Source: Candidatus Tenderia sp.
GTDB taxonomy: Bacteria; Pseudomonadota; Gammaproteobacteria; Tenderiales; Tenderiaceae
NCBI GenBank assembly: GCA_031416075.1
Contig: JANOSY010000074.1
Span: 1 to 49,028 of the forward strand
Direction: 5' to 3'
Length of the DNA stretch: 49,028 bases
Each line of letters opens with the position of its first letter. The stretch's first letter is position 1. The translations under genes and the position numbers were made by a program. The notes below the pieces were generated by a model. The model was not told the DNA's origin. It ran no database searches and worked only from the letters and a program-made list of their open reading frames with translations. Positions 1-12,183 of this stretch are shown here, in pieces.

Positions 1-133
<133 letters not shown>

Positions 134-135
<2 letters not shown>

Positions 136-151
136 CAACTCTACGTTAGGC
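134..151 (+). other. 3' half of an attC site (L' remnant, spacer, R' GTTAGGC) split by the IS110 insertion
   Basis: CTCAACTCTACGTTAGGC aligns with the 3' end of the intact attC (CTCAACTTTACGTTAGGT, 943-960) at 16/18 positions. Confidence 0.85.
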
Positions 152-954
152 AGTATGGCCAAGGAATGTATCCATGAATCCTTATGGAATAATTTACAAA
201 ATAACCAACAGGGTAAATGGCAAGGTTTATGTGGGCCAAACAATACAGCCGTTAAAGTATCGGAAAAAGGATCACTTGAACTGCATCGAAAAATTGTCTC
301 GCCTCGTTCTTTATAAGGCGTTTAAAAAATACGGCAAAGATAATTTTTTATGGGAAGAAATAGATCATGCTGACACGAAAGAAGAGCTGGATACAAAAGA
401 GAAGCATTACATAGAGTTTTTCAATGCAATGGATAGAAGACATGGCTACAACATGACGTTTGGAGGTGAAGGAGGAAGACATCCTGACGAAGTAAGAAGG
501 AGAATTAGTGCCTCGAATAAAGGCCGGATTAAATCTGAAATTGAACGCAAAAGATTGTCAGCTTCTTTGAAGGGGAAGTACACAAAAGAAAAATCATCGT
601 GGTGGGGAAGGAAACATACCGAGGAAGAAAAACGAAAAATAGGCCAAGCTCAGTTAGGCGAAAAAAATCATAATTTCGGGAAAAAAGCTTCCGAGGAAAC
701 TATAAAAAAGATGAGTGAAGCAAGAAAGGGTGAAAAACATTGGAACCACAAAAGAATCATAAACCTTAGTACTGGGGAAGTATTTATATCCGCAGTTGAT
801 GCTAGCCAAAGAACAGGTATTGATAATTCATTAATAGGTAAGTGCTGTAAGGGTCTGCGAAAAACTGCTGGCGGGTTTCAATGGGCTTACAAACTAGCCT
901 AACCCGGCGTTCGAGCGGGACTGCCGAAAAGCGCGGCAGCCCCTCAACTTTACG
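146..954 (+). mobile_element. Complete integron gene cassette carrying the GIY-YIG endonuclease ORF
   Basis: Begins at G^TTAGGC (145-151), has a single ORF whose stop lies in the inverse core GCCTAAC (897-903, exact complement of GTTAGGC), and ends in attC. Confidence 0.88.
174..902 (+). CDS. GIY-YIG homing-endonuclease-like protein with NUMOD3-type repeats and a C-terminal NUMOD1-type HTH
   Basis: N-terminal GIIYKITN...VYVGQT, conserved R/E/N pattern (YRKKDH, KEKHYI, GYNMT); four repeats such as HTEEEKRKIG, ASEETIKKMSEARKG; C-terminal F.S..DA...TGI....I..CC.G..KTAGGF.W; AAGGA RBS at 161-165; AT-rich. Confidence 0.88.
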   Translation: MNPYGIIYKITNRVNGKVYVGQTIQPLKYRKKDHLNCIEKLSRLVLYKAFKKYGKDNFLWEEIDHADTKEELDTKEKHYIEFFNAMDRRHGYNMTFGGEGGRHPDEVRRRISASNKGRIKSEIERKRLSASLKGKYTKEKSSWWGRKHTEEEKRKIGQAQLGEKNHNFGKKASEETIKKMSEARKGEKHWNHKRIINLSTGEVFISAVDASQRTGIDNSLIGKCCKGLRKTAGGFQWAYKLA

Positions 955-960
955 TTAGGT
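897..960 (+). other. attC recombination site (64 bp)
   Basis: R'' GCCTAAC, 5-nt spacer, L'' GTTCGAGC with an extra base, inner stem GGG(A)CTGCCG/CGGCAGCCC, L' CCTCAAC, 5-nt spacer, R' GTTAGGT. Confidence 0.93.
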
Positions 961-968
961 TTCACATC

Positions 969-1139
969 ATGCATATGAGCGATGCTTGGCTTGGTTTCTT
1001 CGGAGGGCTCTTGGCCGCTTTAATCGGCGGCTTAATTGCCAGTGTGTTGCAGCGTCAAAACGAAACAAGGCAGCGTAAGGAAGTAATAATAGGGGACGGA
1101 CCCAATGCTGTTCACTTAGCGAATCCCCGTTCGTCCTGA
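969..1139 (+). pseudogene. Truncated second cassette ORF (N-terminal membrane helix), no attC
   Basis: ATG just after the R' core; MHMSDAWLGFFGGLLAALIGGLIASVLQRQNETRQRKE then runs into the TAATAGGGGAC motif and the MITE and stops inside the MITE. Confidence 0.65.
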
Positions 1140-1213
1140 GCTTGTCGAAGGACTCTGGATGGGTGGCTGGTGGTTCGACAAGCTCACCACGAACGGCTAA
1201 GTGAACAGCATTG
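1103..1213. mobile_element. 111-bp MITE with IS4-like terminal inverted repeats
   Basis: Perfect 18-bp TIR CAATGCTGTTCACTTAGC (1103-1120) / GCTAAGTGAACAGCATTG (1196-1213); 10-bp direct repeat GGGACGGACC at 1093-1102 and 1214-1223; TIR resembles the IS4 end TAATGCCGATCAGTTAAG as I recall it. Confidence 0.85.
1127..1196. repeat. Inverted pair of 26-bp REP-like units inside the MITE
   Basis: CCGTTCGTCCTGAGCTTGTCGAAGGA (1127-1152) and the reverse complement of 1171-1196, CCGTTCGTGGTGAGCTTGTCGAACCA; 22/26 identical. Confidence 0.8.
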
Positions 1214-1275
1214 GGGACGGACCACGGTTTAATAACTCCTACTACTCTCTGCTATGAATTTGGGTAATAGGGGAC

Positions 1276-1368
1276 AGCTCGTAGGGTGCAATAACCAACG
1301 GGCATTGCGCCGCATGTGCCGCCCCATCCGATGCAATGCGGCTACCGCCTTATTGCACAAGAGCTATC
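1276..1368. repeat. GTAG-type REP dyad 1 (right arm lacks CCTAC)
   Basis: GTAGGGTGCAATAACCAACGGGCATTGCGCCG ... CGATGCAATGCGGCTACCGCCTTATTGCAC; near-identical to the next unit. Confidence 0.8.
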
Positions 1369-1386
1369 TGCACCCGCTCGTCGTTT

Positions 1387-1481
1387 AGCTCGTAGGGCGC
1401 AATAACCAACGGGCATTGCGCCGCATGTCCACCATCCGGTGCAATGCGGCTACCGCCTTATTGCACCCTACAAGAGCTATC
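1387..1481. repeat. GTAG-type REP dyad 2 (complete)
   Basis: GTAGGGCGCAATAACCAACGGGCATTGCGCCG (from 1392) ... CGGTGCAATGCGGCTACCGCCTTATTGCACCCTAC (to 1471), flanked by AGCTC/GAGCT. Confidence 0.85.
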
Positions 1482-1512
1482 CACACACACTGCCCAACAT
1501 CCACAGCGGATG

Positions 1513-1532
1513 GGGGCAGGCGTACCTGCCCC
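1513..1532. terminator. GC-rich hairpin just downstream of pilT
   Basis: GGGGCAGG-CGTA-CCTGCCCC; no clear U-tract on the pilT strand. Confidence 0.35.
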
Positions 1533-1546
1533 GCTGATTTGAATGG

Positions 1547-2584
1547 TTACAGGAAGGAGTCTTTATTGGATGCCTTGGTCTGGGCGTCCTGTTTGGTGAT
1601 CACACCCTGACGCACCAGCTCGGTCAGGCACTGATCGAGCGTCTGCATCCCCAGTCCTTGGCCGGTTTGGATGGCGGAGTACATCTGCGGCACTTTGTTT
1701 TCACGGATCAGGTTGCGGATCGCCGGGGTACCGACCATGATTTCGTGCGCGGCGACACGGCCGCCGCCAACACGCTTCAGTAGTGTTTGTGAGATAACCG
1801 AACGCAACGACTCCGAGAGCATCGAACGCACCATATCTTTTTCCGCGGCGGGAAAGACGTCGATGATGCGGTCTATGGTCTTGGCGGCGGAGCTGGTGTG
1901 CAGCGTGCCAAACACCAGATGGCCGGTCTCGGCGGCGGTCAGCGCCAGCCGGATGGTCTCGGGGTCACGCATTTCACCGACCAGGATGATGTCCGGATCT
2001 TCACGCAGCGCCGAGCGCAACGACTCGCTAAAGCCGAGTGTGTCGCGATGCACCTCACGCTGGTTGATGAGACATTTTTTACTCTGATGCACAAATTCGA
2101 TTGGATCTTCGATGGTGAGGATATGACCAAACTCACTGTTGTTTTTGTAATCGACCATCGCCGCCAGGGTGGTGGATTTACCGGAACCGGTCGGTCCTGT
2201 CACCAATACCAGGCCACGCGGATTGTTGGCGATATCCTTAAAGACCGCCGGGCACTTCAGCTCTTCCAGGGAGAGGATGTTGGAGGGGATGGTACGAAAG
2301 ACACCGCCGACACCACGGTTATGGTTGAAGACGTTGACACGAAAACGGGCCAGCCCCGGAATCTCAAACGAGAAGTCGGTCTCATAAAACTCTTCAAAAT
2401 CCTTGCGCTGACGGTCGTTCATGATGTCGTAGAGCATGCCGTGTACGGCCTTGTTTTCCATCGGCGGCACGTTGATACGACGAATATCCCCATCCACACG
2501 AATCATTGGTGGCAGGCCGGCGGACAGATGTAGATCCGATGCAGCATTTTTGACACTAAAAGCCAGCAGTTCGGCTATATCCAT
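1547..2584 (-). CDS. pilT: Type IV pilus retraction ATPase PilT
   Basis: MDIAELLAFSVKN.ASDLHLSAG start, Walker A GPTGSGKST, AIRNLIRE motif; divergent from yggS. Confidence 0.97.
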   Translation of the reverse strand: MDIAELLAFSVKNAASDLHLSAGLPPMIRVDGDIRRINVPPMENKAVHGMLYDIMNDRQRKDFEEFYETDFSFEIPGLARFRVNVFNHNRGVGGVFRTIPSNILSLEELKCPAVFKDIANNPRGLVLVTGPTGSGKSTTLAAMVDYKNNSEFGHILTIEDPIEFVHQSKKCLINQREVHRDTLGFSESLRSALREDPDIILVGEMRDPETIRLALTAAETGHLVFGTLHTSSAAKTIDRIIDVFPAAEKDMVRSMLSESLRSVISQTLLKRVGGGRVAAHEIMVGTPAIRNLIRENKVPQMYSAIQTGQGLGMQTLDQCLTELVRQGVITKQDAQTKASNKDSFL

Positions 2585-2736
2585 GGTGTTCCCCTGGTTA
2601 ATTTAATCCTAAAATGGTGCGACCTGCCCCGGCAGATGGGACGGCACCCCTACTAATCCCTAGCGATAACGGCAAAAAGATCTACTTCTTAATCTGGCTG
2701 TTACAATAGCCCGCTCAGCGCAACGGGGCAATTGTA

Positions 2737-3429
2737 ATGCACAATATCACTGCACGATTGGAAAACGTTAAACAGCGCATCCATCATGCCGAAAGCCGCT
2801 TTGGCCGCCCCGCCAACAGTGTTCGCCTGCTGGCGGTGAGCAAAACCTGGCCAGCAGCGGCGCTTTTGGAGGCCGCTGCCGCCGGGCAACATAGCTTTGG
2901 CGAAAACTATCTGCAAGAGGCATTAGCAAAGATGGCCACCCTTGAGCATGAGCCGTTGGAGTGGCACTACATTGGGGCGATTCAGTCCAACAAGTGCCGC
3001 GATATCGCCACGCGCTTTGACTGGGTGCAGAGCGTTGACCGGCCCAAGATCGCCCAACGTCTGAGTGAACAGCGCCCGGTTGGGTTGCCACCACTCAACA
3101 TCTGCCTGCAGGTTAATATCAGTGGTGAGGCCAGTAAGTCAGGCATTGCCGCCAGCGATGCCCTTGCTGTGGCCCAGGAGATTGCCACCCTGCCACGTCT
3201 AAAATTGCGCGGTTTGATGGCCATTCCGCAGGCTACTGCCGATTTTGAGCAGCAGCGTGCAACTTTCCGTCAGGTATCTGACCTGCAGACGACGTTAATC
3301 GCCAAGGGTATAGCACTTGATACACTCTCCATGGGTATGTCTGACGATCTGGAGGCTGCAATTGCCGAGGGGGCAACGCTGGTGCGTATCGGCAGCGCCA
3401 TCTTTGGCCCGCGCCACAACACCCGTTGA
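2737..3429 (+). CDS. yggS: Pyridoxal-phosphate homeostasis protein YggS
   Basis: LLAVSKT, FGENYLQE, WHYIG.IQSNK, LSMGMS.D motifs. Confidence 0.96.
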   Translation: MHNITARLENVKQRIHHAESRFGRPANSVRLLAVSKTWPAAALLEAAAAGQHSFGENYLQEALAKMATLEHEPLEWHYIGAIQSNKCRDIATRFDWVQSVDRPKIAQRLSEQRPVGLPPLNICLQVNISGEASKSGIAASDALAVAQEIATLPRLKLRGLMAIPQATADFEQQRATFRQVSDLQTTLIAKGIALDTLSMGMSDDLEAAIAEGATLVRIGSAIFGPRHNTR

Positions 3430-5123: not shown

Positions 5124-7112
5124 ATGGAAAGAGCAGGAGCTATGGAGGAAGATATTTTCAAACAGCAGATGAGGGCCTTTGATCGCTGGAAGGCGGAACT
5201 CATCCAGGTGATTCAGGACTATCACCACTGGCTGGAGAGCCAACAATTAGGCAGTCCCGAGATCGATGTACGGCTGTTTGATGTGATCGAATCGCTCAAA
5301 TCAGATCACCTTACCATCGCCTTTGTGGCTGAGTTTTCTCGCGGCAAAACAGAGTTAATCAACTCTATCTTCTTCTCTGACTACAAACGTCGCCTATTAC
5401 CCTCCGAGGCAGGCCGTACCACCATGTGTCCCACCGAGCTCTTCTATGATCACGAAGAGGAGTCCGCTTACATCCGTATGCTGCCGATTGAGACACGCCT
5501 CAGCGACAAAAGTATCTCTGAGTTGAAAAAGGAGAAAGAGCAGTGGCAAACCATCTCCCTTGATGTTAACTCACCAGACCAGATGGTGGAGGCGCTAAAA
5601 GAGGTGATCAAAACCAAAATGGTGCCACTGCAGCTCGCCGCCGATCTCGGGTTATACGATATCAACGAAGCCCCCAGACGGCGTAAAAGCGATGCTCCCC
5701 CCCCCACTGAAATTGAAGTTCCGCTGTGGCGTCACGCCATGATCAGCTTCCCCCACCCCCTGTTACAGCAGGGCCTGGCGATACTTGATACACCCGGACT
5801 CAATGCCCTGGGTACGGAACCCGAATTGACACTCAATATGTTGCCCAACGCCCACGCTGTGCTCTTTGTGCTGGCCGCCGATACTGGCGTCACACGCAGT
5901 GACCTGGATGTCTGGGAGTACCACATCAGAGAGTTCCGTGGCAGCGAAAAAGGTCTGGTGGTTGCACTCAACAAAATAGATACCCTCTGGGACGAGATGA
6001 AGACCCCGGAAGAGATCGAAAATAGCATCAGCACACAACAGCGCGAAGTGGCCAACGCCCTCGGCATCAACATTGGCAACGTCTTTCCGGTGTCGGCCCA
6101 AAAAGCGCTGCTGGCCAAAACCAAAGAGAACGACCAGCTACTCGCAAGCAGTCGCCTGTTGGCGCTGGAAAACTATCTTGCACAAGAGATCATTCCCGCC
6201 AAGCAGGGCATCATTCGCAACAACATTGCCAATGAGGTCGGGGCATTGATCAAAACTAACCGCGACAGCATTGCTGCCCGGTTAAAACAGATCGCCGACC
6301 AACACCAGGATCTGGTCTCAATCAGTGGCAAAAATACCACCCTGATCCAACACCTAATGCGAAAAGCGCGTGAAAAACAGGCCGCCTACAATACCAACAT
6401 GGAGTATTTCCAGTCGAGCCGCCGCACCCTCAACCAGCAAGCCAAACTGCTGCTGGATGAGCTAAGCCTGAAAAAGTTTGACCACCTGACCAATACAGCA
6501 CGTAAGCAAATGTCAGACAGCTGGACCACTGGCGGTCTTAAAACCGGAATGAAAACAATCTTTGATGGCATCCGCGACACCTTGCAGGTGGCCACACGCC
6601 ATGCAGATGAGACACACCAGCAGATTGTCAGCATCTATCAGAAGTTTGAAAAAGAGAACGAGCTTGCCGCACTCCACCCCAAGCCCTTCTCCACCGACAA
6701 ATATGAGGCCGAAATGACCGCCCTCCATGCCCAGGCAGAGGAGTACCGCAGTAGCCCTGTCACCACCATGACCGAGCAGAATTTTGTCATCAAAAAATTC
6801 TTCATTTCCCTGGTGAGCCACGCCCGTGATGTCTTCTTCCAGGTCAACCAGGAGGCCGAAACGTGGTTCAAAGATGTTATGGTGCCACTAGCCAAACATG
6901 TCACCAGCCACAAACAGATGCTTGAACAACACATGGAGACACTCTATAAAATTAATGAGTCCAAGGAGAATCTGGCCTCAAAAACCTCAGAGCTGAGAGG
7001 GCAACATAAGGCGCTGGAGCTGCAGCTGGTGACACTCGACAAGATGTATCAACAGATACACAATGCCGACCACCACTCACCACTGCCCGCCAGACAAACC
7101 GCCAGTGGATAA
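5124..7112 (+). CDS. Bacterial dynamin-like GTPase
   Basis: G1-like AEFSRGKT, G2 RTTMCP, G3 DTPG, G4 NKID, long helical C-terminus; start could be 5142 (AGGAG upstream). Confidence 0.85.
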   Translation: MERAGAMEEDIFKQQMRAFDRWKAELIQVIQDYHHWLESQQLGSPEIDVRLFDVIESLKSDHLTIAFVAEFSRGKTELINSIFFSDYKRRLLPSEAGRTTMCPTELFYDHEEESAYIRMLPIETRLSDKSISELKKEKEQWQTISLDVNSPDQMVEALKEVIKTKMVPLQLAADLGLYDINEAPRRRKSDAPPPTEIEVPLWRHAMISFPHPLLQQGLAILDTPGLNALGTEPELTLNMLPNAHAVLFVLAADTGVTRSDLDVWEYHIREFRGSEKGLVVALNKIDTLWDEMKTPEEIENSISTQQREVANALGINIGNVFPVSAQKALLAKTKENDQLLASSRLLALENYLAQEIIPAKQGIIRNNIANEVGALIKTNRDSIAARLKQIADQHQDLVSISGKNTTLIQHLMRKAREKQAAYNTNMEYFQSSRRTLNQQAKLLLDELSLKKFDHLTNTARKQMSDSWTTGGLKTGMKTIFDGIRDTLQVATRHADETHQQIVSIYQKFEKENELAALHPKPFSTDKYEAEMTALHAQAEEYRSSPVTTMTEQNFVIKKFFISLVSHARDVFFQVNQEAETWFKDVMVPLAKHVTSHKQMLEQHMETLYKINESKENLASKTSELRGQHKALELQLVTLDKMYQQIHNADHHSPLPARQTASG

Positions 7113-8683: not shown

Positions 8684-12183
<3,500 letters not shown>

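Follow-up and report, generated by a model that had tools for sequence, protein, structure and literature searches.

A homing-type GIY-YIG nuclease gene packaged as an integron cassette in a decaying chromosomal integron of Candidatus Tenderia

Contig C74 (JANOSY010000074.1) of a Candidatus Tenderia sp. genome (assembly GCA_031416075.1; 3.49 Mb in 95 contigs) opens with the tail of an insertion sequence (IS); next come an attC remnant and a short integron gene cassette whose single open reading frame (ORF) encodes a putative homing-type GIY-YIG nuclease. The first 49,028 bases of this contig, hereafter the window, were analyzed; the features on which the argument depends are collected in Table 1. 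The nuclease ORF is the sole long frame in the region. Its gene is flanked by an attC remnant on one side and a complete attC recombination site on the other, and the neighbors beyond are chromosomal genes, so that it is neither intron-borne nor lodged between the genes of a phage. The cassette is the last attC-bounded unit ahead of the chromosomal genes pilT and yggS.

Several profiles identify the encoded protein. The profile search proposed in an earlier note on this DNA placed the Pfam GIY-YIG domain (residues 5–85; 28.5 bits against a cut-off of 22.6) and NUMOD3 (71.7 bits over three stretches) above threshold, and left the C-terminal NUMOD-like helix-turn-helix (HTH) below it (PF22083, I-HmuI type; 17.7 against 27). 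The fourth of the four NUMOD3-like repeats counted in that note, IKKMSEARKG at residues 177–186, is accordingly apparent only by eye. Although the HTH described there as NUMOD1-like does not reach the Pfam cut-off, it does stand by alignment of residues 160–222 with the DNA-binding domain of I-TevI (1i3j), as well as by structure comparison. The TIGR01453 model, 'group I intron endonuclease', matched residues 6–227 at 109.3 bits, as compared with a cut-off of 56.05; PHROG 314, a family of homing endonucleases, matched at 1e-45; and sequence matches in the PDB comprised the two halves of I-TevI and no others.

An AlphaFold model built on a 25-row family alignment gave predicted local distance difference test (pLDDT) values of ~90 at residues 1–90 and 190–240 and of 50–68 in the repeat linker. 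The best PDB match to this model by Foldseek was the I-TevI catalytic domain (target TM score 0.79, root-mean-square deviation 2.3 Å, 94 columns); the next matches, for the HTH end, were I-HmuI (1u3e, E 6e-3) and the I-TevI DNA-binding domain (1i3j, E 7e-3). In an alignment of 25 of the 27 close homologue clusters described below (P0022 and P0026 were omitted as truncated proteins), residues Y8, Y19, R30, H34, E76, and N93 are invariant in all 25 members. They match the GIY and YIG motifs of I-TevI and its Arg, Glu, and Asn positions; the Arg is the residue altered in entry 1ln0 and the Glu that altered in 1mk0. The linker of I-TevI holds a four-cysteine zinc finger; such a finger is impossible in the cassette nuclease because the protein contains three cysteines only (C37, C224, and C225). 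These data indicate that the ORF encodes a predicted I-TevI-like GIY-YIG endonuclease with intact catalytic residues. The full-length GIY-YIG ORF and I-TevI/Seg-like architecture reported in the earlier note are thereby borne out, with family, domain, and fold matches in agreement.

The boundaries of the cassette follow from direct reading of the sequence. Integron recombination crosses over between the G and the TT of the core site; applied to the cores GTTAGGC (145–151) and GTTAGGT (954–960), this rule yields the cassette limits in Table 1, and the start assigned earlier, position 146, is the first T after the crossover. Only 22 nt separate the upstream core from the ATG, a second gene has no room within the unit, and the stop codon (TAA, 900–902) is embedded in the inverse core GCCTAAC. 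The ribosome-binding site and embedded stop codon of the earlier note are both present as described. Its perfectly complementary cassette ends hold in part: the 5′ end of the cassette regenerates GTTAGGC, complementary to GCCTAAC at 7/7 positions, but the downstream core as found in the array, GTTAGGT, is complementary at only 6/7. Taken alone, end complementarity is weak evidence for a cassette, because a single base discriminates GTTAGGC from GTTAGGT. The unit from 146 to 954 is a genuine, structurally complete single-gene integron cassette with its own attC.

The attC site itself, which the earlier note had likewise placed at the cassette end, was recovered by an independent covariance model. 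Its R″ and R′ elements satisfy the consensus for inverse core (RYYYAAC) and core (GTTRRRY). A model that combined three of the genome's other sites with one from a same-genus relative and excluded the window site (R2) detected positions 897–961 at 67.2 bits (E 9.4e-20), the sole significant match in the 49-kb window; no further attC was found in the window after position 960. With an attC on contig C58 it shares 87% identity. A second model (R1), for which four sites including that of the window served as the training set, identified 13 attC sites at E<1e-3, spread over 11 of the genome's contigs; this count includes the four training sites. The bottom strand folds into an imperfect hairpin (minimum free energy −15.6 kcal/mol), in which the R and L stems are parted by internal loops. 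Canonical attC sites carry bulges of extrahelical bases, and this hairpin bears three single-base bulges (T, G, and G). The z-score of the fold is only −2.17, and 6 of 200 shuffled sequences fold equally well. Comparison with other sites is thus stronger evidence than folding, and indicates that the predicted attC is real.

Table 1. Coordinates of the cassette, its parts, and related features; positions refer to the window unless another contig is named.
Feature	Position	Strand	Details
Gene cassette	146–954	+	TT of upstream core to G of downstream core; 809 bp
Shine-Dalgarno-like AAGGA	161–165	+	8 nt before ATG at 174
Nuclease ORF, 242 aa	174–902	+	GIY-YIG at ~1–95, four NUMOD3-like repeats at ~105–190, HTH at ~195–240
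Cassette attC	897–960	+	R″ GCCTAAC at 897–903, R′ GTTAGGT at 954–960
3′ end of IS110/IS1111-family IS	1–134	+	Transposase C-terminus and non-coding end
3′ remnant (L′-R′) of upstream attC, TCAACTCTACGTTAGGC	135–151	+	R′ core GTTAGGC at 145–151; 5′ part severed by IS
Full IS copy, 1253 bp	C70, ~10460–11712	−	344-aa transposase
Integron platform remnant (L007/L249)	C26, 1–1324		41-aa N-terminal intI remnant, adjoining ABC-ATPase gene; attI-like site, cassette, and IS-split attC on other strand

The integron to which this cassette would have belonged is in decay. The genome is 99.98% complete by marker genes, and no integron integrase above the TIGR02249 cut-off was found in it (best 86.7 against 265 bits). 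What persists on contig C26 is an intI remnant 60–74% identical to the N-termini of the relatives' intact IntI proteins, an attI-like site ending in CTACTTTACGTTATGC, a first cassette containing two ORFs (200 and 76 aa) with no Pfam match, and an attC whose final part has been replaced by the left end of an IS; because of these remains, the platform is best described as deleted, not as absent. Among 40 relatives, 19 contain IntI above the cut-off, including two of the four from the same genus; two further same-genus genomes contain IntI fragments with stop codons, and the same-genus genome G003 contains an intact intI divergent from an attC of the same type (75.2 bits). Since relatives keep IntI, the lineage is one with sedentary chromosomal integrons, of which this member has lost the integrase. 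That C74 belongs to the C26 array we infer rather than read from the assembly, because the contig breaks inside the IS repeat. With nothing but a remnant of the integrase left, on a different contig, and with an IS interrupting the upstream attC, the nuclease cassette is stranded in a decaying chromosomal integron, and in its present state it can probably not be excised. A tyrosine recombinase in two frames on contig C82 was considered as the missing IntI and rejected; it is XerC/D-like (84.5 + 57.3 bits) and does not contain the IntI-specific segment.

The IS that splits the upstream attC is itself of a kind associated with integrons. The contig breaks within this repeat, which is why the window starts partway through the element; window positions 1–149 match contig C70 at 99.3%, and the full copy there encodes a transposase with DEDD_Tnp_IS110 (PF01548, 92.9 bits) and Transposase_20 (PF02371, 98.4 bits) domains. 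The same 15–16 terminal bases that remain of the split site close intact attC sites on C74 and C58, where CCCC is directly followed by TCAACTTTACGTTAGG. At the beginning of C26 is the counterpart, an attC half that ends in GCGCGCCCC and runs on into the left end of the IS. Both right junctions read GGTATC followed by TCAACTYTACGTTAG, and the left junction, at C26 position 136, reads GCGCGCCCC followed by TTGTATC; these junctions show that the IS entered the attC consensus between CCCC and TCAAC and duplicated no bases. Two right junctions were assembled (one into a cassette on C70, the other at window positions 1–134) and one left junction only. Transposase domains and insertion point together identify the element as a predicted member of the IS1111-attC type, in keeping with the described targeting of one end of attC sites by certain IS1111 members, which the behavior of this IS matches (PMC11187229).

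Other mobile DNA is associated with attC sites elsewhere in the genome. On C82 (~2221–3067, L002), an attC-type site is directly followed by a group II intron (RF02001 at 113 bits, RF01998, RF00029), which looks like an insertion of the group IIC-attC type; beside it lie an IS91-like gene and the two-frame tyrosine recombinase. On the minus strand of C58 (136–2956, L246), the genes immediately upstream of an attC at 728–659 encode a restriction endonuclease resembling Bpu10I (302 bits) and a DNA methyltransferase; beyond this attC are an anthrone-oxygenase-like cassette and an attC at 198–136. The two have the look of a restriction-modification pair lying within a cassette array or on its margin.

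Within the window, the order after position 960 is a 56-aa ORF, a 156-bp element, two repetitive extragenic palindrome (REP)-like units, and then pilT and yggS. The ORF (969–1139) starts 9 nt past the last attC core, has a hydrophobic N-terminal segment, and enters the inverted-repeat element, with no attC after it; it might be what is left of one more cassette. The 156-bp element (1085–1240) has long terminal inverted repeats and occurs on at least four other contigs, with copies of 82–97% identity on C76, C89, C42, and C73; in four metagenome runs, its depth is hundreds to thousands of times that of neighboring DNA, and it is probably a widespread repeat resembling miniature inverted-repeat transposable elements. 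The two tandem REP-like units (1270–1480, each ~100 bp, 88% alike) have partial copies on C87 and C26 and are likewise very deep in groundwater runs.

Homologues of the nuclease form a compact and rarely sampled clade. A search of 5.8 billion protein clusters returned 27 clusters (52 member sequences) at 52–100% identity to the window protein, the next match being at 41%. In a FastTree phylogeny of the 70 best matches, from which P0071–P0120 were left out, all 27 close clusters fall on one branch (SH-like support 100). Almost all of them derive from metagenomes, and in all but four the longest contig is under 5 kb; source labels are scattered, including Nitrospira, a Nealsonbacteria (candidate phyla radiation, CPR) metagenome-assembled genome (MAG), and 'uncultured archaeon'. 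A scan of species-representative genomes identified one close match, locus L008, at 64% identity. No clade members were found in two scans of viral contigs (best 42% identity), among phage records (best 37.6%), or among plasmid records (best 33%), and the protein was found in 0/40 genomes of relatives. A metagenome scan with generic patterns returned, among the matches listed, only relatives at ≤50% identity. Part of the stretch is contained in 20 public runs from 14 studies; in two of these runs, one of which may be its source, half or more of the sampled words occur. A run of a different study (X3) contains identical as well as ~10%-diverged pieces of the ORF. The contigs of these public runs are short, and none bridges a cassette boundary; they are therefore silent on mobility.

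The manner in which this clade spreads can be approached through the peptides flanking its members. In one 90% cluster, five gene calls share the sequence SVRLLSMEAAS, preceded by four unrelated peptides (P0013, P0125, P0130, and P0123/P0124), and in a second cluster the upstream peptides diverge just before VRRNGEKIM. The V-R pair is consistent with back-translation of a GTT AGG core. At the other end, P0004 and P0005 run beyond the usual C-terminus into a common peptide, GGPNNS[LF]KADGP, which would fit a translated attC. Insertion of one cassette behind different cassettes would produce just such a break-point, fixed at a few codons ahead of the start and giving way to unrelated sequence. 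These data suggest that the clade moves as a cassette by IntI/attC recombination, a suggestion that comes from the homologues and not from the present copy. Classical homing, which requires conserved flanks, appears unlikely as a mode of spread, because the upstream flanks of near-identical homologues bear no relation to one another, parting at one set position. No group I intron or other RNA associated with homing endonuclease genes (HEGs) was found in C74 positions 1–2399 at E≤0.1. Among more distant relatives, the R2 model gave no matches in 79 metagenome loci or in 80 genome loci, L008 included; as R2 is a narrow lineage model, other attC types may still be present there. The L008 gene itself (5840–6726) lies at a contig end of a CPR MAG, directly after genes for IscS, NifU, MnmA, and a YhfC-like protein; this placement may be that of a single cassette outside any integron, or may be an artifact of binning or assembly.

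Base composition bears on how the cassette came to be, as the earlier note had anticipated. The ORF has a GC content of 38.3%, as compared with 55.3% for the window and 48–52% for the other cassette ORFs of the genome, and is joined to an attC of 63% GC that is of a type common to this genome and a same-genus relative. Other members of the clade seem, from protein read-through, to end in a different attC-like sequence. This pattern would fit either a foreign gene joined locally to an attC typical of the lineage or an exchange of attC sites. An AT-rich foreign ORF combined with a GC-rich lineage attC makes a concrete case in which to test how cassettes arise.

If it works as I-TevI does, the protein would be held at a defined site on double-stranded DNA by its C-terminal HTH and NUMOD3 repeats, and the N-terminal GIY-YIG domain, held on a flexible linker, would then cut a short distance away. 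Incoming DNA, whether of phages or of other mobile elements, might be cut at a conserved site that is absent from the host, and the cassette might be kept as a single-gene weapon of defense or competition. We prefer the reading that the cassette encodes an I-TevI-type nuclease from an IntI-mobile clade, is stranded in this genome, and has been kept against invading DNA; as a whole we give it an about even chance of being correct, and its functional part is a best guess. Defense is favored because single-gene nuclease cassettes from chromosomal integrons are proven to be anti-phage, proteins derived from HEGs have been reused in phage conflicts, and the gene is intact and un-ameliorated. Nevertheless, a number of observations weigh against this interpretation. 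No sigma-70-like promoter was predicted on the plus strand of window positions 1–1600, the cassette occupies a distal position after an IS, and none of the 20 public runs listed is of RNA. No named defense family in PADLOC-DB 2.0 matched the protein, which hit only five generic 'HEase' models (best 1.8e-18); the GIY-YIG defense nuclease PD-T4-3 gave no sequence match, and its fold match (E 0.48) is not significant. The clade contains no member of known activity, target, or phenotype, and its relatives are typical selfish genes. The evidence for IntI mobility is at the protein level only; the sole homologue examined as DNA, L008, sits beside housekeeping genes, and the inverted repeat upstream of it (GTCTAAC...GTTATGC) folds like shuffled sequence (z −0.55 and −1.09). 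Finally, C74 is joined to the C26 platform only through the IS repeat at the contig break.

Because no named defense family and no promoter were identified, and because the relatives are selfish, a close rival is that the gene is a selfish passenger, from a homing-endonuclease lineage that switched vehicle and persists by IntI/attC recombination and inheritance of the array, with no benefit to the host. We regard this as possible, if on the doubtful side. It accords with the 801 phage records that match the protein, the best of them annotated as homing endonucleases, with the scatter of the clade over unrelated labels and its rarity in genomes, and with the distal, apparently promoterless position of the cassette. 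That catalytic and DNA-binding residues are kept across members diverged to 51–85% identity argues for selection on nuclease activity, but this weighs only weakly against a passenger, as a selfish nuclease would fit too; flanks differ between copies, whereas classical homing needs conserved ones. Variants in which the nuclease cuts arrays or genomes without it, in an addiction-like manner, or makes breaks that induce the SOS response and so IntI, are pure speculation.

The remaining explanations fare less well than either the defense reading or that of a passenger. Free-standing GIY-YIG genes insert between phage genes, and, given that end complementarity hangs on one discriminating base, the ORF might be a free-standing HEG that entered an attC-rich region by double-strand-break repair, its ends resembling those of a cassette by coincidence. 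This we consider highly improbable: the unit runs exactly from core to core, with the ATG close behind the first and the stop codon inside R″; it has a complete attC of the kind usual in the lineage; homologues carry translated attC-like sequence at either end; and no intron- or HEG-associated RNA was found in positions 1–2399. It is also unlikely, if less so, that the cassette is a neutral relic in a dying integron, or that its product is now a sequence-specific repressor, as I-TevI is at its own operator and as is CapR of PLE, an element resembling phage-inducible chromosomal islands. The loss of IntI and the IS, group II intron, and IS91-like element that riddle the integron would accord with a relic, and CapR provides a precedent for a HEG-derived regulator (PMC8096241). 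However, the ORF is intact and free of frameshifts, with the whole catalytic set conserved, and domestication of the CapR type involved loss of the nuclease motif, which is complete here. Beyond these alternatives, a broader and rather tentative proposal, which may well prove wrong, is that an I-TevI-type clade has left introns and phages and circulates as cassettes, either as a one-gene, sequence-specific weapon against phages and rival mobile DNA or as an element that spreads itself through breaks that activate SOS-controlled IntI, and that it offers in addition a traceable case of cassette making.

Homing endonucleases stand in the textbooks as selfish genes bound to introns, inteins, and the genomes of phages, while integron cassettes are usually regarded as adaptive cargo. 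A conserved, catalytically intact homing-type clade packaged with attC links these two worlds, and its homologues suggest that a homing-type enzyme also travels by integron recombination. The clade may additionally offer compact candidates for new single-gene defense nucleases or for programmable-site nucleases; if the protein is instead an ordinary silent passenger, it would add modestly to the known range of cassette cargo. Full-text literature searches, with supplements and subscription journals outside their scope, found no description of such a cassette family, nor did a full-text search find literature joining 'integron' with 'NUMOD'. The terms 'GIY' and 'homing' are absent from the main texts of papers on integron cargo and defense (including bioRxiv 10.1101/2024.07.02.601686 and the BRiC preprint), the supplements of which might list such cassettes, and literature on homing endonucleases, attC, and integrons contains no homing-endonuclease cassette by title or abstract. 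As far as these searches reach, the combination of a homing-type nuclease with an integron cassette is undescribed, although each half is of a known kind.

The closest experimentally studied counterpart is I-TevI, encoded in the td intron of phage T4 (1ln0, 1mk0, 1i3j) and represented by TIGR01453. The two enzymes have in common the N-terminal GIY-YIG domain, the catalytic residues, a long flexible linker, and a C-terminal minor-groove or HTH module; they are only 28–29% identical in the catalytic domain, and the cassette nuclease differs in lying outside an intron, in a linker filled by four NUMOD3-like repeats, and in having an attC cassette as its vehicle. Free-standing, Seg-like GIY-YIG enzymes of phages have the same full-length architecture and are likewise free-standing. 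They supply the best full-length matches that bear an annotation (36–38% identity over 97–98% of the query), for example those in Bacillus phage Izhevsk and Staphylococcus phage PH15. Such phage enzymes spread by break repair between co-infecting phages. They reside in phage genomes, whereas the cassette clade forms a branch of its own.

Among integron cargo, the nearest likenesses are the anti-phage, single-gene nuclease cassettes described from sedentary chromosomal integrons, namely Sirona and Nemetona, which are HNH-related, and Epona, which contains Mrr_cat (bioRxiv 10.1101/2024.07.02.601686). As in these cassettes, and in the BRiC cassettes of mobile integrons as described, the unit is small and contains a single gene, in this case a nuclease in a chromosomal integron; the nuclease fold, however, is different, and the present enzyme is known from sequence alone. 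HEG-derived proteins have also been described as reused in conflicts between phages and their satellites (PMC8096241, PMC8263062). One cassette product that contains a nuclease domain of the GIY-YIG type has been reported, from orf6 of a class 4-like integron in Aeromonas sp. 3925 (PMC10609294); its description mentions only the GIY-YIG domain and no NUMOD, HTH, or homing kinship. Finally, the IS1111-attC group (ISKpn4, ISPst6) and group IIC-attC introns also exploit attC, and one of each kind appears in the attC sites of this genome; those elements insert into attC, whereas the nuclease gene is packaged with attC as ordinary cargo.

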